From contig CAYIBP010000003.1 in the NCBI GenBank assembly GCA_964361705.1, positions 5,606 to 69,605 on the forward strand: DNA of 64,000 nucleotides, read 5' to 3'. Below the pieces are notes generated by a model. The model saw only the letters and a list, made by a program, of their open reading frames with translations. It did no database searches and was not told the origin of the DNA. The position numbers were made by a program, and so were the translations under genes. Position 1 is the stretch's first letter. Each line of letters starts with the position of its first letter. Shown here in pieces: positions 12,785 through 59,675 of this stretch. Source of the DNA: an uncultured Candidatus Saccharibacteria bacterium. GTDB lineage: Bacteria; Patescibacteriota; Minisyncoccia; Phycocordibacterales; UBA9973.

Positions 12785-12821
12785 TGTTTACTTTGCATAT
12801 AGCTCGTGATATAAACGCTAT

Positions 12822-13910
12822 ATGCAAGAAAAGATAAAGAACTGGTTTAAATCTATAAATTTTAGAGAATTTGCAAAACAAGAAGCAAAAAATCCTATAT
12901 TTTGGGCACGATTTTTTGCTTATGCTATTCCCCTAACCTTTTTGCTCTATATACTTTATATAAATTTTCTGCCCTTTGGATATGATAAAACTTTCGTCAT
13001 AAATGCTGGTTCAAAAAACGATATTGTTGTCAGTGAATTTTACTTGGAACCATCGACAAATCTTTCAGAAGACAAAGTAGATGAAAATGGAAAAACATAT
13101 CGCGAATTAAATGGTAGCGCATATGCAATATTTAAACCCAAAGCGATACTAAAAAACGCGACAGTAGCCATCACGACGGAAGACGAAGGAATATTTATAA
13201 ACTCCTCTCTTTTAGATTTTGATAAAGATGAAATAGAATGGGAAAATTCTTTTGATTTCAATGAAGGAATACCAAAAGGATGGGGTGGAAACGCGTTGAT
13301 GGTTGATGATGAACTCACCTTCAATGGAGAAAATTCGCGCATTTATCTGCCCTACTCCAGAGATAGATTTGAGGACGGGCCTTTTAGTTTATATATGGAG
13401 TGGTCTCCGACAGATGAAGACTCAAATTCCCAGCAGATAGTGGGACATTATAACTGGGAACTTTGGCAAAACAAAAACAATGTAGAATTCAGAGTGGGAA
13501 GAATGAATGACAATCAGGGACCCGCTTATTCTATTAAATACACTTTTGACCCTGATCTTTTTTTCTATGACACACATTCAGCTATCGCGATCTATAACCC
13601 AAGCGACAACGGCTACATAGAACTATACATAGATGATGAATATGCGGGTAGAACATACATAGGTAAAGATAAAATTTATAAATATTATGGTGATCAAAAT
13701 CTGACCATCGGATGGAGTCCTCACAACAATGGCAATAATTCATATTTTTCTGGCACTATATATGATCTGAGATTTGCACTTAAAAACATAATTACGCCAA
13801 ACAAAACTGTGACACTAGAAATGGAAGATAACGCTCCTCTAAAAATAGAACTTTTTTCAAACGGTACGGCAAAGTTGAGACAAATCAAGCTAAATGCAGT
13901 CAAACAATAA
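12822..13910 (+). CDS. Membrane-anchored concanavalin-A-like (LamG) domain protein
   Basis: 362 aa; N-terminal TM (IFWARFFAYAIPLTFLLYILYI); C-terminal FSGTIYDLRFALKN is a LamG hallmark. Confidence 0.6.
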   Translation: MQEKIKNWFKSINFREFAKQEAKNPIFWARFFAYAIPLTFLLYILYINFLPFGYDKTFVINAGSKNDIVVSEFYLEPSTNLSEDKVDENGKTYRELNGSAYAIFKPKAILKNATVAITTEDEGIFINSSLLDFDKDEIEWENSFDFNEGIPKGWGGNALMVDDELTFNGENSRIYLPYSRDRFEDGPFSLYMEWSPTDEDSNSQQIVGHYNWELWQNKNNVEFRVGRMNDNQGPAYSIKYTFDPDLFFYDTHSAIAIYNPSDNGYIELYIDDEYAGRTYIGKDKIYKYYGDQNLTIGWSPHNNGNNSYFSGTIYDLRFALKNIITPNKTVTLEMEDNAPLKIELFSNGTAKLRQIKLNAVKQ

Positions 13911-16071
13911 GTTACAAAATATTTGGATTCTATTGGATAGCTATTTCTTCATGCCATTCTTTAGCGCTCTAGCTCTAGTTTTTTTGTGTTTTTACATCGC
14001 TCCACTGGAGTTGTTTTATTTTAGTAAAGTATCATCCATCTACACAGCTATCATTTCCGCATTCATTGCTTTTTTTCTTTGGTTTAGAAGACTAGGAGAA
14101 GAAAGTAGAATAAAAAATCTTTTGACTGAATTAAATAAACATTTCTTTCTTTCAGGTTTAATAACCATAATTATCTTGAATCTCACGCCCTTTGGGAATC
14201 TCTCTTTTCCGACGTACATAAAATTAGTTTTAAACTTTGCGACATTTTTCAGCGGATTTATAACGATCTATGTCAATAAAAATTTATTAGTAAACATAGA
14301 ATCGGAAAGAAATGATGAAATACTTGTGGAGCAGGAGAAAATAAACGAATTCAGAAACAAATTTCCAAAAATAAATAAAATTCCATTATTTAGAAATGTT
14401 GCCAGATTTATTTACATAGAAAAATGGTGGTACTCTCTTTCTATAATCTTACTTTTGGTTATAGGTTTTGTGATAAGACTCTACAATCTTGGTGAACTGA
14501 GTCTATGGTGGGATGAACTCTTAACAGGAACTTACGTCACGAGAATTCTGGAAACAGGTTTACCAATATCACCGTCCGGTTTTGAATATTACTGGAGGGG
14601 AATATCATACCATTATCTTGTTTCTGGCTTTACATTTATTTTCGGAAACACTGAATTTTGGCTTAGATTCCCTAGTGTACTATTAGGAATTGGAACCATA
14701 ATACTATCTTTCTTGATAACGAAAAGAATAAACAAGATTCTAGCTCTTTTTATAGTAATTATTTTAACTTTTTCGATTTACAACGTAGAATATTCTCAAT
14801 TCGCTCGTTTCTATATAATGAACGCCTTTCTTTTTTTACTAAACATAGAATTCTTTTGGCGAGGATTCTTTGAGCAAAAAAAGTGGTTTAAGGTGCTCTC
14901 TATCATTACTTTCTTAATAATGATATTAACCGTACAGTTAGGATCAATATTTATTTCAGTAATATTTTATTACTTAATATATAAAATATCTTTAATAAAA
15001 ATTAAGAAATCAAGAATCAGAGACTTATTTAGTTTAAAATTATTTATACCTATAATGCTTTTTTTGAGTTTATATATAACTGGAAACCCTTTTGATTTGA
15101 TTGGTATCTATAAAGATCATCCTTATGAAGTGGATTTAATTAGTCAGGTAGATGGCAATGTAAGATACATTTTACCTAAAATACCCTACCCAGAATTTAA
15201 AAATATCGTATTACCATTTTTTAATGACTTTTACTGGCCAACTATTTTTTTCATCTTAGCATCAATTATTTCTTTATTTTTAATTTTTAACAAACTAAAA
15301 TTAAACAAAGAACTAGGTTACTCAGAATATATTCTGGGGATATCTTTTATATCACTAATACTCTTTGAGTTCGCTAATCCATTTTCAAAAGAACCTAGAC
15401 TATACCTAATGTTTGAACCTCTTTATATCATCCTATCAATGATGACTATTTTCATCATTGTAAAAGAAATCTTACAACTAAAGCATAAAAAAACATTGAT
15501 TATTCTGTCTTTCATTCTCCTTGCTTTATTTTTTAGTTCAAAACCATCCCTTTATGATGTGATGAATATTAGATACGGTGACAATGTGTCAAACGATCCA
15601 TTTAGAACTACTTGGGCTCAAGCGTATCGTTCCGATTCAAAAACCACGCTTGAATATTTAAAGAAAAATATAGAAGACGAAGACATTTGGATCAATACTC
15701 TTGAACCAGCATATTTTTATTTACAAAGAAATCCAGATTTTATTTTGAATCAAAATTACAAATGGAAAAACATGTGGCGAGAAGAAATTTTTACCGATAA
15801 AGATAAAAACTATATAGAAATAAGATATAACAGTATACTTATAAACACAATGGAAGACTTACAAAAAATCTTAAACAATAATACTAATAAAAATGTATGG
15901 CTCTTAGCAAACGGGCAAAACCTCGAAACATTATATACAAAACAATTAAATAAGGATTTTGTGGACTTTTTATCCGAAAATACAGAAAACGTTGTATATT
16001 CTTCTCCAGACGAAAGAAGCAAGCTTTTGCTTTTCCAAAAATTAAATCAATCCTTCTTGTTAAAGAAATAA
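13894..16071 (+). CDS. GT39/GT-C family glycosyltransferase (ArnT/PMT-like), second paralog
   Basis: 725 aa; at least 12 TM segments; LWWDELLTGTYVTRILETGLP loop motif; overlaps the upstream gene by 17 nt. Confidence 0.7.
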   Translation: MQSNNKLQNIWILLDSYFFMPFFSALALVFLCFYIAPLELFYFSKVSSIYTAIISAFIAFFLWFRRLGEESRIKNLLTELNKHFFLSGLITIIILNLTPFGNLSFPTYIKLVLNFATFFSGFITIYVNKNLLVNIESERNDEILVEQEKINEFRNKFPKINKIPLFRNVARFIYIEKWWYSLSIILLLVIGFVIRLYNLGELSLWWDELLTGTYVTRILETGLPISPSGFEYYWRGISYHYLVSGFTFIFGNTEFWLRFPSVLLGIGTIILSFLITKRINKILALFIVIILTFSIYNVEYSQFARFYIMNAFLFLLNIEFFWRGFFEQKKWFKVLSIITFLIMILTVQLGSIFISVIFYYLIYKISLIKIKKSRIRDLFSLKLFIPIMLFLSLYITGNPFDLIGIYKDHPYEVDLISQVDGNVRYILPKIPYPEFKNIVLPFFNDFYWPTIFFILASIISLFLIFNKLKLNKELGYSEYILGISFISLILFEFANPFSKEPRLYLMFEPLYIILSMMTIFIIVKEILQLKHKKTLIILSFILLALFFSSKPSLYDVMNIRYGDNVSNDPFRTTWAQAYRSDSKTTLEYLKKNIEDEDIWINTLEPAYFYLQRNPDFILNQNYKWKNMWREEIFTDKDKNYIEIRYNSILINTMEDLQKILNNNTNKNVWLLANGQNLETLYTKQLNKDFVDFLSENTENVVYSSPDERSKLLLFQKLNQSFLLKK

Positions 16072-16964
16072 AATATTCCTCCAATTGATGTCTGAATCAA
16101 CATTATAAAACGTGATAACAAAGAAATACTAAGAGATGCCTCTGCCGAAATACCAATGAAAGACAACAGAGATATCAAAGATAATTCATATACACCAATA
16201 GCATTCACAGAAATAGGTACGATACTTATTAATTGTATTACCAGATAAAAACCTGTAACTAACAAATAATCAGTGTTATATCCAAACATTAAGAGATAAA
16301 TCCATAGGCTTAGCGATCCAAGCAAGGGGTATATTATTGAAATTGACACAACTCTAAACCAATTTAAATTCATCTCTTTTATATGATTTTTAATTTTTAG
16401 AACAATTCCTTTCAATTTACTTGAAAAAAAGTAGATAATCAGAGCAAAAAGAAAAATAACAATAAATAAAAAGATAATTGAAATCTTTTTTACTTCTAAA
16501 TAAAAAAACGGCAAGATTTTATAAGACAGGAAAATTAAAAGAAGTAGTGTGCCAGCGATCCCCGACAATCTGTCTAATAAAACGGAGGTGAGGACCTTGG
16601 TCTTGCCCAATTCTGGTCCTAACTTTACAACCTTATAAGCATCACCTCCTATCGTGGAAGGTAAAAAATTACTGAAGAAATTACTCATCCAGTAGATTCT
16701 GAATAGTTTCCAAAACGGGTATTTTATCATCCCCTCCCATTTCAGAGTAGATAAAAATAATCCAGGTAAATATAAGAAAAAAGGAACAAGAATCAAATAA
16801 TTAACATTTGAAAACAATTTTATAGATTCTTCTAAGTCTATTTGACTTAAAACTAACCAAATAAACAGAAACATAAAACAAAGTTTTATAAAAAACCTGT
16901 GTTTAATTAGTAGTATTTTATATGGTTGTAAAAAATCAATTAATTTTTTCATATATTTTAGCAA
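16047..16964 (-). CDS. Flippase-like / lysylphosphatidylglycerol-synthase-TM-like (UPF0104) membrane protein
   Basis: 305 aa; polytopic; GGDAYKVVKLGPELGKTKVLTSVLLDRLSG resembles the UPF0104 domain. Confidence 0.55.
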   Translation of the reverse strand: MLKYMKKLIDFLQPYKILLIKHRFFIKLCFMFLFIWLVLSQIDLEESIKLFSNVNYLILVPFFLYLPGLFLSTLKWEGMIKYPFWKLFRIYWMSNFFSNFLPSTIGGDAYKVVKLGPELGKTKVLTSVLLDRLSGIAGTLLLLIFLSYKILPFFYLEVKKISIIFLFIVIFLFALIIYFFSSKLKGIVLKIKNHIKEMNLNWFRVVSISIIYPLLGSLSLWIYLLMFGYNTDYLLVTGFYLVIQLISIVPISVNAIGVYELSLISLLSFIGISAEASLSISLLSRFIMLIQTSIGGIFYFFNKKD

Positions 16965-17991
16965 GAGAAGTAATGTAATTATTTAAATCTTTACCTTTTA
17001 CATTATCCTTACCGTTGTGAATAAGTTTCAAATAAAGTTCTCCGTCAGATAGTAGGTATTTTATTTTGTTTGCTAAATCAGCAGAATTCTTAGATTGAAA
17101 GGTCAACACATTCCTTTTATCTTGTACCAAACTAGCCAAACTTTCAATATCAGAAACAATAACAGGCACACCAAACATCCAAGATTCATTTAGAACTATT
17201 GGATTTGCTTCACTTAGAGAAGAGATCACTAGCAAATCGATCTCGTTGTAAACATGCTCTACATCAGAAACGAAACCAAGAAATTTTATTCTGGAATCCA
17301 GATCCAGATCTCTTGATAAAGTTTTTAAGTTTAATAATTCTGGACCATCACCCGCAATAATCGCCTTATAATTAGTAGGTAAAAAAGACAAAGATTCTAT
17401 TAAGAATTTACATCCTTTTACTTCACTCAACCTACCGATAAAACCTATTGTATAATTGTCCTTTGGATAAAAATCAATATTAATAATATCAGAAGAGGCA
17501 GAGCACCTAACAAAATTATTCAACACATACAATTTATCTTTCTTGATTGATATATTTTTAAGTAAAAAATCTCTTATGTAGTCAGATACACAGATGACAC
17601 CGTTTATCCTTTTTTTACAGATTTTAAATAAGTTATTGTACAGACGATTGTTTATTAAAATATCTCCATGTTCATGGTGTATAAATTTTAAATCTCGAAA
17701 AATAAGAGATAAGATAATTCCAAAGTAAAACCCCTTACGATGATGAGTGTGTATAATATCTATCTTTTTGTTTTTAATTATAAAAAAAATATCTATGAGA
17801 GGAAAAAGATTAAATTTTGAATAGTTTTTCACTATTACATTATTCTTTTGTATTACTGGTTTATCAACAGGTTTGCGAATAAAATAATAAGTAAGTTGAA
17901 TATTGGGTATATTAAAATTCTTAATTAAAGAATCTACGATGGACTCTACGCCACCGAAACCATATTTATCAACTATATGTAAAACGTTCAT
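16936..17991 (-). CDS. GT4 (GT-B fold) glycosyltransferase
   Basis: 351 aa; C-terminal sugar-donor motif SLSEANPIVLNESWMFGVPVIVSD (E-X7-E type). Confidence 0.8.
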   Translation of the reverse strand: MNVLHIVDKYGFGGVESIVDSLIKNFNIPNIQLTYYFIRKPVDKPVIQKNNVIVKNYSKFNLFPLIDIFFIIKNKKIDIIHTHHRKGFYFGIILSLIFRDLKFIHHEHGDILINNRLYNNLFKICKKRINGVICVSDYIRDFLLKNISIKKDKLYVLNNFVRCSASSDIINIDFYPKDNYTIGFIGRLSEVKGCKFLIESLSFLPTNYKAIIAGDGPELLNLKTLSRDLDLDSRIKFLGFVSDVEHVYNEIDLLVISSLSEANPIVLNESWMFGVPVIVSDIESLASLVQDKRNVLTFQSKNSADLANKIKYLLSDGELYLKLIHNGKDNVKGKDLNNYITSLAKIYEKIN

Positions 17992-17994
17992 AAT

Positions 17995-19095
17995 TTATAG
18001 ATTTGAATATGCCACTAATAAATCATTATTTTCATAATTACTAATTATATTATTCCTCGTACTGATCACACCATCTAATAAAGCATTATTATCTCGTTCA
18101 AGTCTAGAAAGGATATTTTGTAAATCACCTTTGTTTTTATAAAACAAACCATTAAAATTGTCACGTAGCAACTCATGGTTACATTCAATATCATTAGCTA
18201 TCGTGATTTTATCCATAAGCAGATAGTGTATCATTTTCATACTAGGTTGTCTGCCATATATTCTAGGTAAAACGCCCGCTATAGATTTTTTGATCAAAAA
18301 ATTAACATGGGGTACTGATAATTTACCAGGCAAGAAAACTTTTGCATTTAATTCGAGTGTATTTATCAAATCATTGATATTTTCTGAAATCTTCCCAACA
18401 ATGACTAATTTAAACTCGCTTTTAACTTGTGAAAAAAGATTTAAGAAGTTTTCAATACCTTGGTATGATTCAGAATTTCCAACATAAATAAGATATTTTT
18501 CATTTTTTTTATTATCAATAATATAATCTTCAATCTTCAAATCTAATTTATCATAAAAAAGTACAGTTTTTTTATCTTTAAAAACTGGATCCTTTGAATA
18601 AATCTGCCAATTCAAAATTATTAAATCGCAATTTTGGATAATCTTTCTTTCTAAAAAAAGAATAAAACTCCTAAAGGGAACTTCTTTTCTGGAAATTTCT
18701 AGATTATCTATAATGCGATTATGTAAGTCATAGATTAATTTAACTTTTTTTGATACAAAAAAAGAAAGGATATATCCAATAAAAGCAGCCTCAAAATCTT
18801 CACAGTGAACAAAACTATACTGTCTGGATAATATCAAATACAATCCTTTACAAAAAATCAAAAAATCTAGAATTATTCGAGATAAATTTATTTTTCCAAC
18901 ACCTATCGTGGGTTTAAAAAAACTAATAGTCCTGTATAATCTTGTATTTTTTAGCTCAATATCTTTCCCAAGATTATAAGTAAGTAAATCAATTTCATAT
19001 TTTTCACTTAATTTGCTAACCATCGAATACACACGAAGAGAAGAACCTTTTTCTTCGTAAAATGGTGTTGTGGCAATTACCAATACCCTCTTCAT
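17995..19095 (-). CDS. GT4-like glycosyltransferase
   Basis: 366 aa with GT-B architecture; adjacent to the GT4 gene and 4 nt-coupled to galE. Confidence 0.6.
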   Translation of the reverse strand: MKRVLVIATTPFYEEKGSSLRVYSMVSKLSEKYEIDLLTYNLGKDIELKNTRLYRTISFFKPTIGVGKINLSRIILDFLIFCKGLYLILSRQYSFVHCEDFEAAFIGYILSFFVSKKVKLIYDLHNRIIDNLEISRKEVPFRSFILFLERKIIQNCDLIILNWQIYSKDPVFKDKKTVLFYDKLDLKIEDYIIDNKKNEKYLIYVGNSESYQGIENFLNLFSQVKSEFKLVIVGKISENINDLINTLELNAKVFLPGKLSVPHVNFLIKKSIAGVLPRIYGRQPSMKMIHYLLMDKITIANDIECNHELLRDNFNGLFYKNKGDLQNILSRLERDNNALLDGVISTRNNIISNYENNDLLVAYSNL

Positions 19096-20997: not shown

Positions 20998-21005
20998 ATA
21001 CTGTA

Positions 21006-21014
21006 TTTATACCA
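21006..21014 (-). promoter_or_regulatory. Extended -10 (TGGTATAAA) 8 nt upstream of the GT2 ATG: leaderless-type promoter
   Basis: Minus strand reads TGGTATAAAT-ACAGTAT-ATG. Confidence 0.45.
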
Positions 21015-21072
21015 AAAAATAAATCTTTTTCAAGCCGTCTAATAATCGACACAAGACACATAATTCTTTTTT

Positions 21073-21081
21073 TGCTATATT
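21073..21081 (+). promoter_or_regulatory. Extended -10 (TGCTATATT) 7 nt upstream of the rnr ATG
   Basis: TGCTATATT-AAATAGA-ATG. Confidence 0.45.
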
Positions 21082-21088
21082 AAATAGA

Positions 21089-23056
21089 ATGAAAGAAAAA
21101 CATACAAAAAAGCCGATGAAGGTGTCGGGCATTATATCTGTTTCTTCAAAGGGTACTGGGTATGTCTCGGTAGAGGGTAAAGACAAAGACATAGAGATAG
21201 ATTTCGCTCGTTTGAATACTGCTCTCCATGGAGATACGGTAGAGATATGTATCCATTCTAAGGGCAAAGACAATACTAGGGGCGAAGTGATAAAAGTAAT
21301 TTCTCGCGCAAAGACAGGATTCTCTGGTGTTCTGCAAAGAGAAAAAGGCGTGTATTTTCTGAAACCTGATGACACAAAGATGTATGCCGACATATCAATA
21401 CCAGAAATGTTTTTAAATAAAGCAAAAGCTGGAGAAAAAGTGTATGCAGAAATAATGTCTTGGCAAGATTCTTCCAGATTACCCGAAGGCAAAGTATTAA
21501 AAATACTCGGCAAGCCGGGCAACAACGATACCGAAATGCACGCTATCGCCATAGAAAAAGGTTTCGATAACGATATGCCAGAGAGAGTCAAAGAAGAAGC
21601 AAAGAAAATAAAAACTCTCGGAATGCAAACAAAAGATTACGCAGACAGAAAAGACTTCAGAAAGATTCTGACATTTACTATCGATCCCGAAGATGCAAAA
21701 GATTTTGATGATGCGATATCCATTAGAGAGATAAAAGTAGGCGACCCTGCTCTACCCGAAGGAGGCTATGAGATAGGGGTACACATAGCAGATGTAACAC
21801 ATTTCGTACGAGAAGGTGGCACGATGGATGAAGAAGCCAAATCACGAGGTACTTCTGTGTATTTAGTGGACAGAACAATACCGATGTTACCAGAAGAGAT
21901 CTCCAACGATCTGTGTTCCCTGCTACCACACAAAGACAGGTTTGCAATGAGCGCAGTTTTTATGATGAACAAAAACGCAGAAGTAAAAGGAGAATGGTTC
22001 GGCCGCACGGTAATACATTCGCAAAAGAGATTTACATATGAGGAGGCGGAAAAATCTATAAATGATCAAAACGCACATCTGCACAGGGAACTACATATAC
22101 TAAACACTCTTGCAAAGAAATTAACCGAGGAGAGATTTAGATTAGGCGCGATGTCCCTAGAACAAGAAGAAGTGAAATTCGTACTAGATAAAAACGGTAA
22201 ACCTTTAAAGGTTATAAAAAAAATACGAGGAGATTCTAATAAACTCATCGAGGAATTTATGTTGCTCGCCAACAAAAAAGTCGCGGAATTATTTTCTGCC
22301 AAGGTAGATAAAACAGAAAAAGACAATGGGGTATTTATATACCGAATACACGATAGACCAGAGAAAGAAAAGGTTATTAATCTAGCTTTCTTTTTACGCA
22401 GTCTCGGACATAAAATCTCAATAATAAATGATCAAATTCCAAAGCAAGAGATAAACAAAATTTTACAAAAAATATCCGGGCAAAACGGAGAAGATACGAT
22501 TCGAAAGATGATCATAAGGTCTATGGCAAAAGCAATATATTCCACAAAAAATATTGGGCATTATGGTCTGGCATTTGATTATTACGCTCACTTTACTTCA
22601 CCTATCAGACGATATCCGGATATGGTAGCGCACAGACTCCTTGCTGATTTTCTGAAAACAGAAAGCAAACATCAGAAAGCAAACAAAGAAAAAGTAGCAG
22701 AGTTTCAGAAAATAGCAATGCGATCTTCTGAGCGCGAGAAATACGCTGCCGACGCAGAAAGAGCCTCGGTAAAATACAAACAAGTGGAATATATGTCTCT
22801 TAGAATTGGCAAAACTTTCTCCGGTACGATCAGCGGTGTCACCGAATGGGGAATGTTTGTAGAAGAACACGAAACTAAATGCGAAGGTTTGGTGCGTCTG
22901 CGCGAGATGAAAGATGATTTTTATATTTTCAATGAAAAAAAGATGGAGCTGGTAGGAGAAAAACACAAAAAGAAATACAGTCTGGGAGACAAAGTAAAAA
23001 TAAAAGTGAAAGACGCAAACCTAGAAAGAAAAACAATAGACTACGAACTCGTATGA
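21089..23056 (+). CDS. rnr: Ribonuclease R (RNB-family 3'-5' exoribonuclease with a C-terminal S1 domain)
   Basis: 655 aa with an RNB catalytic region (DPEDAKDFDDAIS, HIADVTHFV) and a C-terminal S1-like segment. Confidence 0.9.
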   Translation: MKEKHTKKPMKVSGIISVSSKGTGYVSVEGKDKDIEIDFARLNTALHGDTVEICIHSKGKDNTRGEVIKVISRAKTGFSGVLQREKGVYFLKPDDTKMYADISIPEMFLNKAKAGEKVYAEIMSWQDSSRLPEGKVLKILGKPGNNDTEMHAIAIEKGFDNDMPERVKEEAKKIKTLGMQTKDYADRKDFRKILTFTIDPEDAKDFDDAISIREIKVGDPALPEGGYEIGVHIADVTHFVREGGTMDEEAKSRGTSVYLVDRTIPMLPEEISNDLCSLLPHKDRFAMSAVFMMNKNAEVKGEWFGRTVIHSQKRFTYEEAEKSINDQNAHLHRELHILNTLAKKLTEERFRLGAMSLEQEEVKFVLDKNGKPLKVIKKIRGDSNKLIEEFMLLANKKVAELFSAKVDKTEKDNGVFIYRIHDRPEKEKVINLAFFLRSLGHKISIINDQIPKQEINKILQKISGQNGEDTIRKMIIRSMAKAIYSTKNIGHYGLAFDYYAHFTSPIRRYPDMVAHRLLADFLKTESKHQKANKEKVAEFQKIAMRSSEREKYAADAERASVKYKQVEYMSLRIGKTFSGTISGVTEWGMFVEEHETKCEGLVRLREMKDDFYIFNEKKMELVGEKHKKKYSLGDKVKIKVKDANLERKTIDYELV

Positions 23057-28713: not shown

Positions 28714-28720
28714 GGGGGTT

Positions 28721-28726
28721 TTTATA
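28721..28726 (-). promoter_or_regulatory. -10 box TATAAA 7 nt upstream of the rnc ATG
   Basis: Minus strand reads TATAAA-AACCCCC-ATG. Confidence 0.35.
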
Positions 28727-28735
28727 TTAATAAAT

Positions 28736-29662
28736 TTAACTTATTTTCTTGCTTATAATATCTATCGCCTTGGTAATAAGCGGAATAATGTCATTGTAAA
28801 TGCGAAGCTGTGGGATTTCAGAAAGCTGAAACCATCTCGCATCATCAAGACCACCAGACTTTTCTAACACAAGTTCTTTGTACTCGCTCTCTGCTAAAAA
28901 ATAAACCACTTTTTTCAAAGTCTTGCCATTTTCCGGATGAGTTGCAACATATTCATTCACGCCTATTTTTTCTTTGATTTCTACATCAAGACCTATTTCT
29001 TCTTTTATTTCCCTTTTTGTGCCTGTCTCTATTTCTTCTCCTGACTCTACTTTACCTTTTGATAAAGTCCAATACCCAAAAACATCGTGTACAAAAGCAA
29101 ATAAAACATCACTGTCCTTCTTTGCATAAACTAATGCTCCACCCAGATTCTCAACGGGAAGTTTGCTGATATCTACAGACTCTTCTTTCTTTTTCGTTTT
29201 GCTTATCTGTTCTTTGCCCGGCTCGCCTATCTCTTTGTACACAGCACCCAACACGCCATTGATAAACTTGCTTGAATTTTCTCCACCGAAAGTTTTTGCA
29301 AGCTCTATGGCTTCGTTTATAGCAACTTTCGGAGGCACTTCATTTCTATCGCCGAAAAGGAGTTCGGTGAGACCAATCCTTAATATATTTCTATCAACAA
29401 CCGAGATTTTCTCAAGAGGCCAGTCTGGAGCTGCCTTTTTGATTATCTCATCAATAATGCTAGTTTTTTTTAATACAAGTTCAGCGAGAATAAAAACAAA
29501 CGGATCATCTTCAAAACTGGGAGTGAATTCTTTCAGGTTTCTTTTTAGAGCATTTTTCACTTTCTCTTCATCCCAAGAAACACCACCTTCATGAGTAGAC
29601 ATAAAATCCCATTCAAAGAGGGTTTGGAGAACTATTGATCTTGAAAGGTGCCTGTTTGCCAT
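28736..29662 (-). CDS. nusB: NusB antitermination factor fused to a C-terminal Nudix hydrolase domain
   Basis: The N-terminal 140 aa are NusB-like (RSIVLQTLFEWDF...VDRNILRIGLTELLF...INEAIELAKTFG). The C-terminus carries a Nudix box GYWTLSKGKVESGEEIETGTKREIKEEIG. Confidence 0.8.
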   Translation of the reverse strand: MANRHLSRSIVLQTLFEWDFMSTHEGGVSWDEEKVKNALKRNLKEFTPSFEDDPFVFILAELVLKKTSIIDEIIKKAAPDWPLEKISVVDRNILRIGLTELLFGDRNEVPPKVAINEAIELAKTFGGENSSKFINGVLGAVYKEIGEPGKEQISKTKKKEESVDISKLPVENLGGALVYAKKDSDVLFAFVHDVFGYWTLSKGKVESGEEIETGTKREIKEEIGLDVEIKEKIGVNEYVATHPENGKTLKKVVYFLAESEYKELVLEKSGGLDDARWFQLSEIPQLRIYNDIIPLITKAIDIISKKIS

Positions 29663-29951: not shown

Positions 29952-29958
29952 AATACCG

Positions 29959-29964
29959 ATTATA
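29959..29964 (-). promoter_or_regulatory. -10 box TATAAT 7 nt upstream of the rpmF ATG
   Basis: Minus strand reads TAGTATAAT-CGGTATT-ATG. Confidence 0.45.
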
Positions 29965-30007
29965 CTAGCATATAAAAGATAAAAAGCAAAATTTTAACTC
30001 TGCCTTG

Positions 30008-30035
30008 TTGACAATAAATATATCCGCGCTATCAT
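30008..30035 (+). promoter_or_regulatory. Sigma-70-type promoter of the thrS leader (TTGACA-16-TATCAT)
   Basis: TTGACA at 30008-30013, a 16-nt spacer, TATCAT at 30030-30035. Confidence 0.5.
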
Positions 30036-30041
30036 ACTCTT

Positions 30042-30224
30042 ATATAGAGATTGTCACGGCTACCAACCGTAATCCGATTAAAACGGACTCTTAAGAGAGC
30101 TAATCTATGAAAGAGCGCTCGGGAAAATTCTCGAGAAACTAGGTGGAACCACGAGGACTTTAACTTCCCCGCCCTAGTAAGGATGTAGAACTTTTGCATC
30201 TTTACTAGGGCGGGGATTTTTTGT
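30042..30224 (+). ncRNA. T-box riboswitch leader (Thr-specific candidate) ending in an intrinsic terminator
   Basis: The T-box-like sequence AACTAGGTGGAACCACGAG (30137-30156) matches AGGGUGGNACCGCG at 11 of 13 positions. The UGGA bulge could pair with the tRNA NCCA end. ACC Thr codons followed by a purine lie in the upstream stem region (GGCTACCAACCG). A 14-bp GC-rich terminator CCCCGCCCTAGTAA...TTACTAGGGCGGGG plus a T-run sits at 30167-30224. About 230 nt separate the promoter from the thrS ATG. Confidence 0.55.
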
Positions 30225-30270
30225 TTTATATTATTAAAATTAATCAATTAACCTATTTGAAATAGTTTTT

Positions 30271-32019
30271 ATGGAAAAAGAAAATTTAGAACACAAAAGA
30301 CATTCGTTAGCGCATTTGTTATCAGCAGCAGTTTTGGAACTTTACCCCGATACAAAAAACACTATCGGTCCTGCTATTGATGATGGTTTCTATTATGATT
30401 TTGAATTCTCTGAACCTATATCAGACAAAGATCTGCCAAATATAGAGAAAAAAATGCGCGCGCTTTTGAAATCTTGGAAAGAATTTAAAAGTGAAGAAAA
30501 AACAAAAGAAGAAGCGCAAGAATATTTCAAAAATAATCCATACAAACTAGAACTAATAAACGAGATAAAAGATAAGAGTGAAAAAATTACTTTTTATACT
30601 TGTGGCAATTTTACTGATTTATGCCGAGGTGGACACAGTGAAAACCCTAGCAGAGATATCGCCCCAGACTCTTTCAAACTTGATCGCGTAGCAGGCGCAT
30701 ACTGGCGTGGAGATGAAAAAAACAAAATGCTCACTCGCATATATGGATTAGCTTTTGAAACGAAAGACGAGCTTGAAAAATATATTTATCAAAGAGAAGA
30801 AGCAAAGAAAAGAGACCATAGAAAGCTCGGCAAAGAACTTGAACTCTTTACAAACATAGAAGAAATCGGCCCTGGGCTTCCCCTCTTTTATCCAAATGGC
30901 ACAATATTGCGTAGAACGATTGAGAACTTTATACAAGAAACTCAGGAAGCGCTGGGCTACGTTCCTATCTGGATACCTCATATAACAAAAGAAAATTTGT
31001 ATAAAATCTCTGGGCACTTGGATAAATATGATGCCATGTATTCACCTATGAAAATAGATGATGATAATTATTATCTAAAACCCATGAATTGTCCGCATTT
31101 CATGATGCTATACAAGACAAAACCACATTCATACAAAGAAATGCCTGTGCGATACACTTGCACGACGACAAATTACCGTTACGAAAAATCAGGTGAACTA
31201 TCTGGTCTCACTCGAGTGCGCGCGCTGACTCAGGACGACTGTCATGTATTTTGCGAACCAGAAAAAATAAAAGAGGAAATAAATTTAATTCTAAAAATGA
31301 TAGAAAAAGTTTATTCTGCATTTGGACTCAAAGATTTCTATGTACGCATATCGCTCCGTGATTCAAAAGACAAAAGCAAATATTTGGGTTCCGATAAAGT
31401 ATGGGAAACGGCAGAAAACGCTCTCCGTGAGATAGTGAAAGCTACAGGTTGGAAATACGAAGAAGCCGAAAATGAGGCCGCTTTCTACGGACCAAAATTA
31501 GACTTTATGTTCAAGGACGCCATAGGTCGTGAGTGGCAACTCTCCACCGTACAACTAGACTTTAATCTGCCAGAAAGATTTGAATTGGAGTATACAAACA
31601 ACAACGGAGAAAAGGTTCGTCCTGTAGTGATACATCGTGCAATTCTCGGATCCACAGAAAGATTTATGGGTATAATGATCGAACATTTTGCTGGTAATTT
31701 CCCTCTTTGGCTTTCGCCTACCCAAGTCGCCATAGTACCTGTACGCGAAAACCACGACGAAGAAGCACTCAAACTTGCAGACAGCTTGAAAGCAGAAAAT
31801 TTGCGCGTAGAAATATATCAATCCGCATCAGATAGTCTTGGCAAGCGCATCCATAAAGCAAAAGATATGTTGATACCTTATGTCATAGTCCTTGGTGACA
31901 AAGAAGTCTCCTCCCAAAAACTCACAATAGAAAAGAGAGATGGCACAAAGATAGAAAATATTTCTGCTTTAGAATTTATAGAGAGTTTAAAGAGGGGAAC
32001 AGAAAAAAAAGACCTTTGA
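30271..32019 (+). CDS. thrS: Threonyl-tRNA synthetase (lacks the N-terminal TGS/N1 region)
   Basis: 582 aa. It begins in the second additional domain (HxxxH ... CxxxxxxCRGGH zinc motif), followed by the class II catalytic core and the anticodon-binding domain. Confidence 0.9.
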   Translation: MEKENLEHKRHSLAHLLSAAVLELYPDTKNTIGPAIDDGFYYDFEFSEPISDKDLPNIEKKMRALLKSWKEFKSEEKTKEEAQEYFKNNPYKLELINEIKDKSEKITFYTCGNFTDLCRGGHSENPSRDIAPDSFKLDRVAGAYWRGDEKNKMLTRIYGLAFETKDELEKYIYQREEAKKRDHRKLGKELELFTNIEEIGPGLPLFYPNGTILRRTIENFIQETQEALGYVPIWIPHITKENLYKISGHLDKYDAMYSPMKIDDDNYYLKPMNCPHFMMLYKTKPHSYKEMPVRYTCTTTNYRYEKSGELSGLTRVRALTQDDCHVFCEPEKIKEEINLILKMIEKVYSAFGLKDFYVRISLRDSKDKSKYLGSDKVWETAENALREIVKATGWKYEEAENEAAFYGPKLDFMFKDAIGREWQLSTVQLDFNLPERFELEYTNNNGEKVRPVVIHRAILGSTERFMGIMIEHFAGNFPLWLSPTQVAIVPVRENHDEEALKLADSLKAENLRVEIYQSASDSLGKRIHKAKDMLIPYVIVLGDKEVSSQKLTIEKRDGTKIENISALEFIESLKRGTEKKDL

Positions 32020-34272: not shown

Positions 34273-34279
34273 ACAGGGT

Positions 34280-34288
34280 ATTATAGCA
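34280..34288 (-). promoter_or_regulatory. Extended -10 (TGCTATAAT) 7 nt upstream of the gyrB ATG: leaderless-type promoter
   Basis: Minus strand reads TGCTATAAT-ACCCTGT-ATG. Confidence 0.5.
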
Positions 34289-34337
34289 GAAAAATAAACC
34301 GTTTGCTAGTGAAAAAATTTTGAAATATGAGATATAA

Positions 34338-34372
34338 TAAAAAAAATAGTCTGCGAATGAAAATTCGCAGAC
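34338..34372 (-). terminator. Intrinsic terminator downstream of the tRNA
   Basis: Minus strand reads GTCTGCGAAT-TTTC-ATTCGCAGAC followed by a T8 run. Confidence 0.7.
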
Positions 34373-34377
34373 TTTCG

Positions 34378-34453
34378 TGACGGTGACGGGATTCGAACCC
34401 GTGGACACTGCTTCTCAGGCAGTTGGCGATCCTATCGCCTCGTCTCCACCGTC
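34378..34453 (-). tRNA. tRNA with an atypical cloverleaf and an apparent GAG anticodon
   Basis: On the minus strand there is a perfect 7-bp acceptor (GACGGTG/CACCGTC), a T-arm ACGGG-TTCGAAT-CCCGT, an anticodon arm ACTGC-CTGAGAA-GCAGT and a D-arm GGCG-ATAGGAT-CGCC. Seven nt, not two, separate the acceptor from the D-stem, and the variable loop is 4 nt. A GAG (Leu) anticodon should come with a long variable arm, which is absent, so the identity is uncertain. Confidence 0.55.
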
Positions 34454-41634: not shown

Positions 41635-42386
41635 TATATGTATATTCTAGTCCTCTTTATTTTAAAAGCGAGGGCAGGCAAATTAATATTTTTCCCCAAA
41701 TCGTTTGCGATACTACGAACATAAGTGCCACTGCTACATCTAATCTTAAAATTCGCAATAAAATACTTATCCTTGTTTTTGCTCAATTCTTTATTCCAGA
41801 TATTTAAAATCTCTTTCTGTCTAAAATCACCTTTCACTTTCTTGATTCTCCTTTCAATATTTTCCAGTAGCTTTTTCGTACCGACACTTTTCAAACCCAA
41901 AAATTTCAAACTTTTCACTTTTACTTTATTTTCCGGCAACATCACACTCACCCCCTCTCTACCGTATTCAAAGAGAGGTTTACCCTTCACTGTCTTTGAA
42001 GAAAAAATAGGATATTTTTGAATTATATCGCCTATGAAAAATCTTAGATTCTTTAATATTTCCTTTTTTAGGCCTATCGTTAGGCCTTGCCTAACGATAT
42101 TTTCTTTTTTTAGAATTTTCCCCAATATATCAAAAGTGTCTGTCGCAAAGCCAAACAAAACTTCAAACTCGTATTCTTTATCAAGTTTCAGATACTTTTC
42201 TTTATTCTTTACTTCATCCCCTGCGAGAATAAGCAATACACCGGAGGCCATAGGGTCCAACCTGCCAGCGTAAGTCATCAGCAGATCTTTGTATTCTTTA
42301 TGTTTTGCCCGAAAATGTTCAAGAGCTTGAAGAGGAGTCTCACCTTCTTTTTTATTCAGCACTATGACCTTTTTAGCTTTATTCAT
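41634..42386 (-). CDS. truB: tRNA pseudouridine(55) synthase
   Basis: AGRLDPMASGVLLI catalytic-Asp motif. The start is set at the internal Met (MNKAKKVIVL), which lies 9 nt downstream of a TATAAT. The ORF-track extension to 42458 is probably spurious. Confidence 0.85.
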   Translation of the reverse strand: MNKAKKVIVLNKKEGETPLQALEHFRAKHKEYKDLLMTYAGRLDPMASGVLLILAGDEVKNKEKYLKLDKEYEFEVLFGFATDTFDILGKILKKENIVRQGLTIGLKKEILKNLRFFIGDIIQKYPIFSSKTVKGKPLFEYGREGVSVMLPENKVKVKSLKFLGLKSVGTKKLLENIERRIKKVKGDFRQKEILNIWNKELSKNKDKYFIANFKIRCSSGTYVRSIANDLGKNINLPALAFKIKRTRIYI

Positions 42387-42395
42387 CACCGAATG

Positions 42396-42401
42396 ATTAT
42401 A
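42396..42401 (-). promoter_or_regulatory. -10 box TATAAT 9 nt upstream of the truB ATG
   Basis: Minus strand reads GTATATAAT-CATTCGGTG-ATG. Confidence 0.4.
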
Positions 42402-42445: not shown

Positions 42446-42532
42446 GGAGGCGTCGCATAGTGGTCTAGTGCACCACCTTGGAAAGGTGGCAGGCTCGAAA
42501 GGGTCTCGTGAGTTCAAATCTCACCGCCTCCG
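42446..42532 (+). tRNA. tRNA-Ser (anticodon GGA)
   Basis: Acceptor GGAGGCG/CGCCTCC; 3-bp D-stem; anticodon arm CCACC-TTGGAAA-GGTGG; long variable arm; T-arm GTGAG-TTCAAAT-CTCAC; discriminator G. Confidence 0.85.
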
Positions 42533-42551
42533 CACGAATTTGAAAGAATTT

Positions 42552-43712
42552 ATGTCCCATAATAATTTAAACTCAAAAAACAAATTGATAAGCGAAAGTC
42601 TAACGGTCCGACTAAACACGCTGGCAAATCAACTCAAATCTGAAGGCAAGAAGATAATAAACCTCACTGCAGGAGAACTCGATTTCCCTACTCCGTCTTA
42701 TATACAACAAGAAGTAAAGAACAAACTGTCTCTGAACAAATACACTCCCACCACAGGGTTTCTGGATTTGCGTCAAGCTTTGGCAAGACAGGTATTCAAA
42801 GAATATAAATGGCAAGTCACACATCAAAATGTGGCAGTAACATCAGGATGCAAACAAGCGCTCTTTGAGAGTTTGTTCGCAATACTCAAAAAGGACGATG
42901 AAGTCATAGTCCCATCACCTGATTGGGTGACATACAGATACCAGATCATTTTAAATGATGCTGTGCCTGTGATCGTGCCACTCGATAAAGATTTCGATCT
43001 GGATGTGGAAAAAATAAAAAAAGCGATCACTAAAAAAACAAAAGCAATAATACTAAATAGTCCCAATAACCCCACCGGCTCTATATATAGTACAAAAAAA
43101 CTTCTGGAATTAAAGAAAATTTTAAAAGAAAAAGATATATATGTAATAGTAGATGACACTTACAGCAAAATCGTGTATGACGCGTCTTATAAATCTCCGG
43201 CGCTTTTTATGCCAGATGAAAGATATCTGATCTTGGTAAACAGTTTTTCTAAAAGCCAAGCACTGACTGGCTGGAGGATAGGATATGTAATAGCCGACAA
43301 AGAAATCATAAATGCAATATCTTCTTATCAGAGCCACACCACAGGCAATGCTCCAATACTGTCGCAGATCGCTGCGCAAAAAATATTGGAAAAAGGAGAC
43401 AAGACTGAAAGATTTGTAAAAGTACTAAAGAAACAAAGAGACCTAGCTGATAAAATATTAAAAAATATATCTGGGATTTCCTACACAGTTCCAAAAGGCG
43501 CTTTTTATTATTTCATAGATGTGTCTAAGATCGAAAAAAACACAGAAAAGTTTTGCGAAGAACTTCTGAAATCGGGATTGGCGTTGGTTCCCGGTGAAGC
43601 TTTTGGTTATCCCGGATTTGTGAGATTGTCATTTTCAACTTCGACAAAAAATCTGATCGAGGGTATTAAAATATTTAAAAAGTTCTGCGAAAACTATAAA
43701 AACCATGATTAA
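42552..43712 (+). CDS. Class I/II PLP-dependent aminotransferase (aspartate aminotransferase-like)
   Basis: PLP-lysine motif SFSKSQALTGWRIGY. The start is moved to the ATG at 42552 because the ORF-track start at 42468 overlaps tRNA-Ser. The stop overlaps the ppcA ATG. Confidence 0.85.
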   Translation: MSHNNLNSKNKLISESLTVRLNTLANQLKSEGKKIINLTAGELDFPTPSYIQQEVKNKLSLNKYTPTTGFLDLRQALARQVFKEYKWQVTHQNVAVTSGCKQALFESLFAILKKDDEVIVPSPDWVTYRYQIILNDAVPVIVPLDKDFDLDVEKIKKAITKKTKAIILNSPNNPTGSIYSTKKLLELKKILKEKDIYVIVDDTYSKIVYDASYKSPALFMPDERYLILVNSFSKSQALTGWRIGYVIADKEIINAISSYQSHTTGNAPILSQIAAQKILEKGDKTERFVKVLKKQRDLADKILKNISGISYTVPKGAFYYFIDVSKIEKNTEKFCEELLKSGLALVPGEAFGYPGFVRLSFSTSTKNLIEGIKIFKKFCENYKNHD

Positions 43713-45207
43713 AATTCCAAGAACAATGGCAACACAGCATCCTGATAATGCCAAAGCTCCGTATTGGGAACAAGATGGCGACACTTTTGTGAGCGCAAAA
43801 GAAGAACCAGCAGAATGCGTAGATGCATTTCAAAATCTAAATGTAGAAGAATTTATGTGGGACTGGGAAGGCAAATTTGCAGAAGAAGCGGTGATAGACA
43901 GGTTGTTTCATAAATATTTTGATTACTTCAAAGAAAACCAGCTTGGACTAAAGAAAAGACTCACTTTTCGCATACCAAACATTTGGCAGGAAAAAGGCTA
44001 CAGTCTGATCCGCGCATTGATGGTAATATTGACCAGTGAAGATTTTGCGCGAGATTTGAAATTTCATTCACCTCCCTTGTTTGAAGTCATTTTGCCGATG
44101 ACAGAGAATGCAAAACAACTTATCTTTATTCAGAAATCATTCCAAGAATTGGCAAAGATAAAATCAAAGATATTCAACCAGTCTGAAAAAAATGCTCAAT
44201 ATATAAATATAATTCCCCTTTTTGAAGATGTACACACGCAAATAAATGCAAAGAGAATTCTGATAGAGTACATAAAACTCCATAAAAGAACTTTTGGCTT
44301 CAAGCCAAAATATTTGCGCGTATTTATAGCTCGCAGTGACCCAGCCATGTCTTCAGGCATGGTATCCACAGTGCTTGCCAACAAGATAATCCTCTCTGAT
44401 CTTTGCGAATTAGAAAAAGAATCCGGCATACCCATATACCCTATCTTGGGCGCAGGCTCTCTGCCTTTTCGCGGAGGACTTTCACCTTTGACCATGAAAG
44501 AATTTGATGAAGAGTACAGAGGAATACATACCATAACAATCCAATCAGCTTTCAGATACGACTACAAACTCTCTTCAGTCAAAAAAGCCATAAAATATTA
44601 CAATCAGCAAACTATCCGCAAGCCAGAAATCATTTCTAGCGAAGAGCGAAGCAAGTTACTGAGAATAATAAACTTGTTTGAAAAAGAATATAAGGCGAAT
44701 CTAAAAAAGATCTTGCCTGATGTTTCTTTTGTATTCAATTCTTTCCCAAGAAGAAGGGAGAGGCACCTGCATATAGGGCTCCTCTCTTATGGTAGGAAAA
44801 TACATGGTGTAAATATGCCACGCGCTATCACATTTACCGGATCTTTTTATTCATTGGGTATTCCGCCAGAGTTTTTAGACGTAGGAGCTATTTTATCACT
44901 CACAGACAAGGAAGTAGCCTTGGTAAATAAATTTTATAAAAATACCAAAGGTGCCCTTTCGCATGCTGGACGATTTTTAAATCGAAACAATCTGCGCAAA
45001 CTAGGTAAAAAATCAAAAAGTTGGGCAAAAATTGAAAAAGATATAGAACAAACCGAGAATTTTCTAAAGATTAAATTCAAAACTCAAAGTAAAGACGACA
45101 TAGCTCACCTTAAACTCACAGGCATGCTTCTGAAATCAAAGAAAAATCCGAAAAAGATAAAGCAAATCATAAATAAAACCGGAATCCTGAGAAAAAGTCT
45201 AGGATAA
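43705..45207 (+). CDS. ppcA: Archaeal-type phosphoenolpyruvate carboxylase
   Basis: N-terminus MIKIPRTMATQHPDN is the hallmark start of atPEPC; about 500 aa is typical for the archaeal-type enzyme. Confidence 0.8.
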   Translation: MIKIPRTMATQHPDNAKAPYWEQDGDTFVSAKEEPAECVDAFQNLNVEEFMWDWEGKFAEEAVIDRLFHKYFDYFKENQLGLKKRLTFRIPNIWQEKGYSLIRALMVILTSEDFARDLKFHSPPLFEVILPMTENAKQLIFIQKSFQELAKIKSKIFNQSEKNAQYINIIPLFEDVHTQINAKRILIEYIKLHKRTFGFKPKYLRVFIARSDPAMSSGMVSTVLANKIILSDLCELEKESGIPIYPILGAGSLPFRGGLSPLTMKEFDEEYRGIHTITIQSAFRYDYKLSSVKKAIKYYNQQTIRKPEIISSEERSKLLRIINLFEKEYKANLKKILPDVSFVFNSFPRRRERHLHIGLLSYGRKIHGVNMPRAITFTGSFYSLGIPPEFLDVGAILSLTDKEVALVNKFYKNTKGALSHAGRFLNRNNLRKLGKKSKSWAKIEKDIEQTENFLKIKFKTQSKDDIAHLKLTGMLLKSKKNPKKIKQIINKTGILRKSLG

Positions 45208-46060: not shown

Positions 46061-46116
46061 GGCTCTTTTCTCCTTAGAGTTTAGCCATTTTACTAACACT
46101 ACGCGGGATTGGGTGC

Positions 46117-46274: not shown

Positions 46275-48805
<2,531 letters not shown>

Positions 48806-54500: not shown

Positions 54501-54850
54501 TCATCATTATAAGAAGTAAAATATACCTTCTGTTCTGAAGTGCCATTTACTCTTAAATTACCATTTATGGAAATACCATATTTACCAAAAATCTTAACAA
54601 TTACACCGGGCTCAATCGTCAAAGTCACGCCAGACGAGACAAGCGGAACATGAGTAAAACCTCGCAATATATCATAGCTATAAATAACATAAGGGCTGTT
54701 TTCTAGCGTCCATGTCGTATCAGTATCGATTGGCGCAGAGATAGTTGTGCTGGCATCTGCATAATTTATATTCCAGAGAAAAAGAAAACTGAAAAATAAA
54801 ACCATCAACGCAAGTTTAATCTCGTTTTTTAAAAAAGTCATAATAGTCAA
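51593..54850 (-). CDS. Large secreted protein: two tandem right-handed beta-helix modules followed by a C-terminal lipase-like alpha/beta-hydrolase domain
   Basis: 1085 aa with a signal peptide. An approximately 270-aa unit is duplicated (TW..N.PY.I...GVTL.I.PGVIVK...NGT.EQKVYFTS.NDDT.GGDTNND...GDW). Pectate-lyase-like repeats follow (NVSLVNSSIEDNEMYGI, NISSSQIKNNQSYGIYVERGSLNITNSDI). The C-terminus has FPGIMGSRLY and the lipase nucleophile elbow VTLIGHSNGGLV. Confidence 0.7.
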   Translation of the reverse strand: MTIMTFLKNEIKLALMVLFFSFLFLWNINYADASTTISAPIDTDTTWTLENSPYVIYSYDILRGFTHVPLVSSGVTLTIEPGVIVKIFGKYGISINGNLRVNGTSEQKVYFTSYNDDTIGGDTNNDGLDTAPQVGDWANILFHQGSTGVFNNTVIRYGGSYYYSYYAETVGSISNHGGNISVTDSLVENNVLYGVKTYAGTTNISGTVLRDYWGFYGGGGQNKIEDLITLTNNVFDGGIYINLNGVRNFLHSGNTSTKSDGIYISGKLSQNQTWTKDNMPYIINGSGTTNYNSSDYVFSVPLGVTLNIDPGVIVKFKRNMSVSVKGNLIINGTNEQKVYFTSINDDTVGGDTNNDQSDIAPSAGDWNHLFFGDKSVSQLSHVAMKYGGRWYYSYSGSNNGVIYNSGGNVSLVNSSIEDNEMYGIRQYYGSLNISSSQIKNNQSYGIYVERGSLNITNSDIFGHQTGVYSKVLVNAKDNYWGDSSGPYHLTKNPNGKGDKVSDNVNFTPWLTKEICKINCFSNVMFFPGIMGSRLYLQESNGEKELWVSADDALQSKLTLNTNGKNSNVYTKNDTQKISDGYERETGIVDEISGFNIYNSFLFDLKDWKKEGTINDYHFIPYDWRVALEDIVVKGDLNVNGKLFYNNNQTFSESFILKKLKELQATSRTGRVTLIGHSNGGLVIKALIQKLKETNDPLYDKIDQVIFVGVPQIGTPQALINMLHGESMGPVGFVMTAKRNRWLAKNMPTAYNLLPSVSYFSINDPVIAPDQIVTFQNHALFNPQISKYGLQVNNFSELKDYVLGGDGRAEPLFDEVKKPAKGNSILFPKAESVHNVLDSWQPSSSTKVVQLAGWGKETVSGIEYKTFVKSGQEDVTYKPKYISEGDNTVVTSSALWMSDSNLNVEKWWVDLIKYDTWFAVERNHKDIMEVSNLRDFIKSKITGVPFSDSEDVVVKHYPTTVFAPRIHYHLFTEGRVGIVDAKGRYTGVDFTTGKVKQEIPQTRYTEIGSTKFISVPDGLAYTLKIDPTEDVVMDVDRQVGNDVTDSNTVMSKFSKSKLFTVDANASLDVKGLKFKEVLKNAVNTNQ

Positions 54851-54895
54851 TATTATACAATAATTAGAGAAAAGTCAAATTTTATATTTGGTCTT

Positions 54896-59604: not shown

Positions 59605-59675
59605 ATTACAAGTATATTACAAAAGAACGACAAGAAAAAGAGGGCACTCTGAAATTTGTGGACAACCGCGTGAAG

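Follow-up and report, generated by a model that had tools for sequence, protein, structure and literature searches.

Many sigma-70 promoters of a Nomurabacteria-like bacterium likely start transcription on the A of the ATG start codon, or 1–5 nt before it, giving mRNAs that would be translated by the leaderless route, and this arrangement is likely lineage-wide among the Paceibacteria/Nomurabacteria-like members of the Candidate Phyla Radiation (CPR). Leaderless mRNAs had been proposed in the initial annotation of this DNA because of a recurring TATAAT-like box just upstream of ATG start codons. The proposal is supported by the position of the boxes, their promoter identity, their specificity for ATG, the restriction of their TG-extended form to first genes, their conservation, and the lack of Shine-Dalgarno (SD) sequences. 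It is from these properties that we infer where exactly transcription starts and that translation is leaderless.

The window, by which we mean the whole stretch of 64,000 nt that was analysed, has a GC content of ~37% and comes from a Nomurabacteria-like CPR bacterium with a tiny genome, living in groundwater. The GyrB protein of the window is 83–88% identical to Candidatus Nomurabacteria/Paceibacterota proteins from metagenome-assembled genomes, and contigs of Hainich groundwater metagenomes, with wells H51 and H52 as the source samples, carry exact copies of window proteins. Judging from the use of TGA as the stop codon in 8 of the 49 window stops, this organism uses genetic code 11. A sigma-70 factor of 417 aa with the Pfam domains r1_1, r1_2, r2, r3, and r4, region 3 being the one that contacts TG, is encoded directly after dnaG on contigs of the same organism.

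Several other features of the window are recorded here for completeness. An island of 27–29% GC at 13894–19095, in which GC at the third codon position falls to 21%, encodes GT1/GT4 glycosyltransferases, an LPG_synthase_TM protein, and a large protein without a Pfam match, and is probably devoted to surface glycans, as a variable or acquired locus. The window also encodes a NusB-NUDIX fusion protein (28736–29662), an archaeal-type PEP carboxylase (PEPcase_2; 43705–45207), and a long type IV pilus cluster (48293–63872) comprising PilM, PilO, two T2SSE ATPases, PilC, several prepilins, and the PilD peptidase.

Boxes before the start codons of the window

Gene starts in this study are our own calls, taken as the first ATG of the open reading frame, two of which were corrected by hand, and "gap" denotes the count of bases separating the −10 hexamer from the ATG. 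Boxes at gaps of 7–9 had been described for six genes, encoding a family-2 glycosyltransferase (GT2), RNase R (rnr), RNase III (rnc), L32 (rpmF), GyrB (gyrB), and TruB (truB). All six boxes are present in the sequence at the coordinates given, and the gene names are upheld by Pfam, with which the other genes of the window were annotated as well. As had also been described, three of the six carry TGn (GT2, rnr, and gyrB), and a GGAG-like SD motif is found at none of the six genes (0/6). These boxes and others of the window are collected in Table 1.

Table 1. Candidate −10 boxes and associated elements in the window, with one SD-led gene for contrast (coordinates of minus-strand elements run from high to low)
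Feature	Span (strand)	−35 hexamer	Spacer	TGn	−10 hexamer	Gap (nt)	Start codon	Remark
GT2 promoter	20998..21033 (−)	TTGAAA 21033..21028	16 nt	TGG 21014..21012	TATAAA 21011..21006	8 (21005..20998)	ATG 20997	
rnr (RNase R) promoter	21053..21091 (+)	AAGACA 21053–21058	17 nt	TGC 21073–21075	TATATT 21076–21081	7	ATG 21089	
rnc box	28714..28726 (−)				TATAAA 28726..28721	7	ATG 28713	doubtful
rpmF (L32) promoter	29952..29989 (−)	TTGCTT 29989..29984	16 nt		extended −10 TGc-TAGTAT 29970..29962	10	ATG 29951	
gyrB promoter	34273..34308 (−)	−35-like TAGCAA 34308..34303	17 nt	TGC 34288..34286	TATAAT 34285..34280	7	ATG 34272	
truB box	42387..42401 (−)				TATAAT 42401..42396	9 to ATG; 6 to GTG	ATG 42386; in-frame GTG 42389	
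UvrD/PD-(D/E)XK helicase box	41635..41649 (−)				TAGAAT 41649..41644	9	ATG 41634	inside truB 3′ end
LamG-like gene promoter	12787..12824 (+)	TTTACT 12787–12792		TGA 12807–12809	TATAAA 12810–12815	6	ATG 12822	
T2SSE-type ATPase gene (58546–59604) box	59605..59616 (−)				TATACT 59616..59611	6	ATG 59604	
Gene 51593–54841 box	54842..54857 (−)				TATAAT 54857..54852	10		predicted leader ~3–4 nt
Contrast gene 45311–46060	46061..46075 (−)						ATG 46060	AAGGAG 46075..46070, 9 nt before ATG

The divergent GT2 and rnr ATGs are separated by a spacer of only 91 nt that holds both promoters back to back, with their −35 hexamers 19 nt apart. Both promoters fit in this arrangement only if both transcripts start at the ATGs. 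The rnr box, with its TG, was among the sites found by a sigma-70 consensus scan; the GT2 box, like that of rnc, ends in A (TATAAA), without the conserved T at −7. The gyrB promoter is directly preceded by a terminator hairpin (34373..34348), and before this hairpin, in the order of transcription, lies an element at 34378–34444 (minus strand) that is tRNA-like by Rfam (34 bits, E ~1e-5 locally), not by ARAGORN, and whose alignment lacks four bases of the 5′ acceptor strand. Most boxes of the window are found at gap 7–9, unlike the mode of 6 in the clade, and some transcripts may thus carry leaders of 1–3 nt.

Further boxes were observed in the same organism past the right end of the window (L084, 6800–8850), where TGgTATCAT-N6-ATG precedes a cupredoxin-like gene, TATAAT-N7-ATG a DsbA-like gene, and TATAAT-N11-ATG a phosphoribosyltransferase gene. 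The phosphoribosyltransferase gene and pilM are divergent, with start codons only 43 nt apart.

TATAAT-like hexamers are common at 37% GC, and some of them are expected near ATGs by chance. The rnc box looks like such a case, as do some operon-internal matches, which appear compositional. It has no TG, its −35 matches are 3/6, the preceding gene ends only 22 nt before it, and it is not conserved in relatives; lacking both conservation and promoter features, it is probably a chance match. A generic sigma-70 scan also failed to discriminate in this AT-rich DNA, finding 48 sites in 20 kb vs 54.7 in shuffles, which tells us that the signal is the position relative to the ATG and is carried by no single box. 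When position was considered, strict hexamers (second base A, sixth base T, and at least 5/6 matches to TATAAT) were found at gap 6–9 in 11 of 50 window genes, as against 3.1 at other upstream offsets and 3.8 in shuffles (P ~0.001), and allowing TATAAA as well raised the count to 15 genes vs 3.7–4.6 expected. TG-extended boxes numbered 4 vs 0.2 expected, a count reached in 0 of 5000 shuffles. The enrichment in the window is therefore threefold for strict boxes and ~20-fold for TG-extended ones, and it is joined by the sharp single-offset peak in relatives, by the TG found at the unselected positions −15/−14 in 49% of aligned boxes, and by the phage K control, in which only 1 of 104 genes has such a box. 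Chance is refuted by these results for the box set as a whole, for which we consider it extremely improbable, and is possible for single sites such as rnc.

It could also be asked whether the start codons were mis-called, so that translation would begin at a downstream codon behind an ordinary leader. The starts are, after all, deduced from the sequence, and the first-ATG rule failed for truB, whose longest-ORF start (42458) runs into tRNA-Ser (42446–42533, opposite strand); the true start of truB is 42386 or 42389. Against such an error, the called starts of the window genes sit 6–38 residues before the onset of Pfam domains (for example, the Glycos_transf_2 match of GT2 begins at residue 11 and the OB_RNB match of rnr at residue 14), the N-termini of GyrB and L32 are conserved from residue 1 in relatives, and the same 75-aa L32 is called identically in public assemblies. 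In addition, SD motifs were found neither downstream nor upstream of the called starts, and a test that is free of gene calls likewise places at gap 6–8 an ATG that opens a long ORF. We regard mis-called starts as a very improbable explanation of the pattern.

Position and promoter character of the boxes in related loci

The comparison set consisted of 80 Paceibacteria loci around gyrB (1.3 Mb), in which genes were called mechanically and grouped into 489 families, with family weighting so that orthologues were not counted repeatedly; since all these loci surround gyrB and share orthologous genes, their independence is imperfect despite the weighting. TANNNT was found at exactly gap 6 in 14.3% of head-gene families vs ~4.4% at other offsets (family-weighted), while the frequencies of TGnTAnnnT among head families were 6.3% (gap 6) and 2.6% (gap 7), over a background of ~0.5%. 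Among operon-internal genes, TGnTAnnnT was found in 0.2–0.6% (0.2% of internal families at gap 6). Plain TANNNT was somewhat raised at gap 6–8 before internal genes too, and its first-gene specificity is only partial because of composition. Leaving out gyrB, 500 head genes gave 55, 21, 17, and 18 matches at gaps 6, 7, 8, and 9, respectively, over a background of 6.2.

The same peak was obtained without gene calls. Of 162 TGnTATAAT sites, 13.6% had at gap 6, and 33% at gaps 6–11, an ATG that begins an ORF of 60 aa or more, with ~0–1% at most other offsets. In the low-GC loci, ATGs that open ORFs of at least 80 aa followed TG-extended boxes 39, 19, and 13 times at gaps 6, 7, and 8, and mostly 0–5 times elsewhere, while GTG and TTG were flat after these boxes. 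This strict ATG specificity fits a leaderless route that needs a 5′-terminal AUG. One conceivable artefact, a bias of "first ATG after stop" calls by the TAA inside TATAAT, was ruled out, because this TAA is out of frame at gap 6 and the peak is the same in the gene-call-free analysis.

A strict −10 hexamer at gap 6–11 was found in the low-GC loci in 30% of the genes with an upstream spacer of at least 50 nt (6.5–9% at control offsets) and in 42% of those with spacers of 20–49 nt (~10%), and from these frequencies about one quarter to one third of transcription units have the leaderless geometry. Accordingly, the term widespread, used for the boxes at first, applies to roughly one quarter to one third of first genes and not to the majority of genes. 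The spacing of exactly 7–9 nt given in the initial annotation was too narrow, as the clade has its mode at 6, a range of 6–8, and a tail to 11, corresponding to leaders of 2–5 nt.

For an assessment of promoter character, 142 candidate boxes from 80 families were aligned on the hexamer, and positions outside the selection were examined. Position −15 was T in 70% of the boxes, position −14 was G in 55%, and the TG dinucleotide was present in 49% vs ~6% expected. A −35 element with at least 4/6 matches was present in 34% vs 11–18% in shifted controls, with a weak TTG and a spacing of 16–18 nt, and a pyrimidine occupied −1 in 65%. Judging from these sequence features, the boxes are sigma-70 extended −10 promoters with a weak −35.

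The distance from the −10 hexamer to the transcription start is normally ~7 nt (6–9 nt) for RNA polymerase holoenzyme, which prefers a purine that follows a pyrimidine. With gaps of 6–8, transcription would thus begin on the A of the ATG, whereas gaps of 9–11 would leave leaders of 2–5 nt. In the mechanism that we propose, promoters for the housekeeping sigma-70, most of them extended −10 promoters (TGnTAtaaT) whose −35 is weak, would produce an mRNA without room for a ribosome-binding site and without anti-SD pairing, the 5′-terminal AUG of which would be recognized by the ribosome together with the initiator tRNA. The remaining genes, tightly packed or overlapping, would be initiated behind A/T-rich upstream sequence with no SD.

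This geometry is kept across the orthologues of rpmF, the UvrD-like helicase gene, and gyrB while the spacer sequence drifts. For rpmF, in 46 related loci (41–100% protein identity), a −10 box lies 6–10 nt before the same ATGGTAGTACGAATG. The UvrD-like helicase gene has a strict TAnnAT-type box at gap 6–8 in 12 of 20 orthologues, mostly at gap 6, with spacer sequences that are unrelated among the orthologues; a genome of 58% GC is included, with gap 6. In gyrB relatives, TGnTATAAT is located 7–13 nt before the ATG. As for the coding side of rpmF, ATGGTAGTACGAATG is nearly invariant in relatives down to 41% L32 identity, bar some synonymous variation, and the L32 start MVVRM is conserved in the window (29949–29937) and in the 46 loci. 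The eight listed occurrences of rpmF on public contigs are all metagenomic-looking; in each of them the contig extends upstream of the ATG, and none is transcript-like.

The rpmF case bears on how short the leaders are. A TATAAT (29964..29959) at gap 7, overlapping TGc-TAGTAT, is indeed present before the ATG at 29951, which opens MVVRMRHT..., as had been described. The relatives, however, favour TGcTAGTAT, 3 nt further upstream, with a leader of ~3 nt. In close relatives, TGyTAnnaT at gap 9–10 is conserved with a −35 TTGCTT and with cATT immediately before the ATG, and this conservation makes a start ~3 nt upstream of the ATG likelier than the TATAAT-N7 reading. It is a serious possibility, although rated somewhat below even, that the boxes at gap 8–11 in general (GT2, truB, the helicase gene, rpmF with TGcTAGTAT, and gene 51593–54841) produce leaders of 1–5 nt. 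The conserved rpmF arrangement speaks for such leaders, since it would place C at −1 and A at +1 of a start 3 nt before the ATG, and so do the range of gaps in gyrB relatives (7–13) and the fact that 20 of the 91 long-ORF ATGs at gaps 6–11 after TG-extended boxes fall at gap 9–11. On the other side, the polymerase range of 6–9 together with the preference for a purine after a pyrimidine is often satisfied by the ATG itself, as reflected in the 65% of boxes with a −1 pyrimidine. Moreover, mRNAs with such leaders would still be without SD and are usually classed as leaderless.

Beside rpmF, the plus-strand gene thrS (30271–32019) is preceded by a promoter of strong consensus, TTGACA-16-TATCAT (30008–30035), and by a leader. 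This leader (within 29970–30225) is T-box-like, matching Rfam RF00230 with a score of 35 bits (E = 1.8e-6) that does not reach the gathering score of 93, and contains AAACUAGGUGGAACCACG and a 20-bp terminator hairpin (30168–30214) followed by a T-run. The thrS genes of several relatives have instead TGnTAnnAT 7–8 nt before the ATG, indicating that the leader was gained or lost within the clade.

Shine-Dalgarno usage

A GGAG/GAGG-type motif was found in only 1 of 48 window genes, 45311–46060, which is the sole window gene with a conventional leader and SD. This gene (span to 46274, minus strand) has the highest GC of the window (47.6%; 46% at the third codon position), and TGcTATAAT is located ~150 nt further upstream of its AAGGAG. 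The perfect AAGGAG noted for it in the initial annotation is there; for the foreign origin proposed at the same time, GC content is the one argument, since among 5.8 billion proteins only a truncated copy of the gene product itself was matched.

No SD enrichment was found in the low-GC loci, where GGAG/GAGG at −18..−5 occurred in 13 of 522 genes vs 19 in a control stretch. The same was true of each class of genes in these loci: head genes without the leaderless geometry had SD in 18/240 (19–21 in controls), internal genes in 11/171 (21–22 in controls), and for head genes with the leaderless geometry no SD enrichment was found either. The internal genes are packed at −4 to ~+10 nt, and their upstream sequences are A-rich and G-poor. 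In higher-GC relatives SD was enriched about twofold, which shows that the method detects SD where it is present.

As an external control, 100 kb of Staphylococcus phage K, an AT-rich (30% GC) SD user, was run through the same pipeline. A −10 hexamer at gap 6–9 was found in 1 of 104 phage genes, and SD in 60 of 104 vs 7 in the control stretch. As this pattern is the opposite of that in the window, AT-rich composition by itself does not yield the spacing distribution. The spacing thus differs from the random expectation for AT-rich DNA.

16S rRNA was found neither in the window nor in the 80 loci by universal segments (exact and with two mismatches), and the flanks of the source contigs carry protein genes only, with no 16S. 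In one locus (L076, 11035–15233), a 23S rRNA gene that is not preceded by a 16S starts ~1 kb past gyrB, which indicates that the rRNA genes are unlinked.

The absence of SD raises the possibility that the box is a non-SD element bound by the ribosome or by S1 on leadered mRNAs, as in group B of the Bacteroidota, with the promoters further upstream. SD is unused in the clade, all genes are A-rich upstream, and plain TANNNT is somewhat raised at gap 6–8 before internal genes, all of which would suit such an element. Before internal genes, however, the frequency of the TG-extended form is lower by a factor of 10 or more (0.2–0.6% vs 6.3% and 2.6%), and the boxes have the sigma-70 features of TG at −15/−14 and a −35 at 16–18 nt. 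The peak of offsets is 1 nt wide and lies at the distance at which RNA polymerase starts, and little room for a promoter is left by the terminator upstream of gyrB and by the 91-nt GT2/rnr spacer. We consider a binding element of this kind improbable, and retain the promoter reading of the boxes.

Leaderless genes in other bacteria and in the CPR

The accepted signature of leaderless genes is a Pribnow box 6–8 nt from the start codon (PMC6028130; PMC3160421). Genes with this signature, termed "TA-led" (PMC3160421) or assigned to group C of GeneMarkS-2, are known mainly from Actinobacteria and Deinococcus-Thermus (PMC6028130; PMC12340547). The genes described here resemble them in having TANNNT 6–8 nt before the ATG of the first gene of an operon, an arrangement that accounts for ~25–50% of transcription units in those bacteria. 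Of the features of group C, we found the TANNNT-type peak, the first-gene restriction of the TG-extended form, and the 5′ AUG, but not SD on the remaining genes. The TA-led and group C genomes are mostly high-GC and use SD for leadered and internal genes, whereas the organism studied here has 37% GC and no gene class enriched in SD; half of the boxes here are TG-extended, and the lineage belongs to the CPR/Patescibacteria.

Among the genomes of groups C and D that use code 11, nearly all have a high GC content (bioRxiv 10.1101/2022.07.25.500264), and a low-GC genome with code 11 is described as rare for group C. Low-GC genomes of group C are found with code 4 (Mycoplasma), in which 30–60% of transcripts are predicted to be leaderless (bioRxiv 10.1101/2022.07.25.500264). 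Our organism is similar to Mycoplasma in its AT-rich, reduced genome, but Mycoplasma has code 4 and an RBS model, while TGA is a stop codon here. With group B of the Bacteroidota it shares little or no SD and A-rich upstream sequences, those of operon-internal genes included; unlike here, where the TG-extended box is first-gene-specific and promoter-like, in group B every gene has the motif within its transcribed leader.

Within the same broad lineage, no more than 48% of Parcubacteria were found to have a detectable anti-SD motif, and many lack bS21 (Tsurumaki et al., 2022; PMC9297842). That study concerned the ribosome side and not mRNA 5′ regions or promoters, and the present results add the matching mRNA-side picture, a lack of SD. 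The mechanism is known from other bacteria, and no report of it for the CPR lineage was found in the open literature that our search covered.

Gene finders that expect SD or take the longest ORF misplace starts in genomes of this kind, as illustrated by the truB ORF that extends into a tRNA gene, and with the −10 box as a start marker, thousands of metagenome-assembled CPR genomes could be annotated better. The arrangement would also give an mRNA-side account of initiation in Parcubacteria with reduced ribosomes, in which the anti-SD and bS21 are often missing, and the bacteria with many leaderless genes would come to include a deep-branching lineage of low GC and code 11, which bears on the debate about whether leaderless initiation is ancestral. 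More tentatively, and with odds that we put a little against it, Paceibacteria, the present organism included, may have given up SD/anti-SD pairing altogether, with first cistrons that are largely leaderless or have leaders of at most 5 nt, transcribed from extended −10 promoters, and with downstream cistrons that are initiated independently of SD on A-rich junctions with tight packing. If this is true, SD-free Paceibacteria would be the mRNA-side counterpart of the loss of anti-SD and bS21 in Parcubacteria, and one of the few bacterial lineages with completely SD-free initiation.
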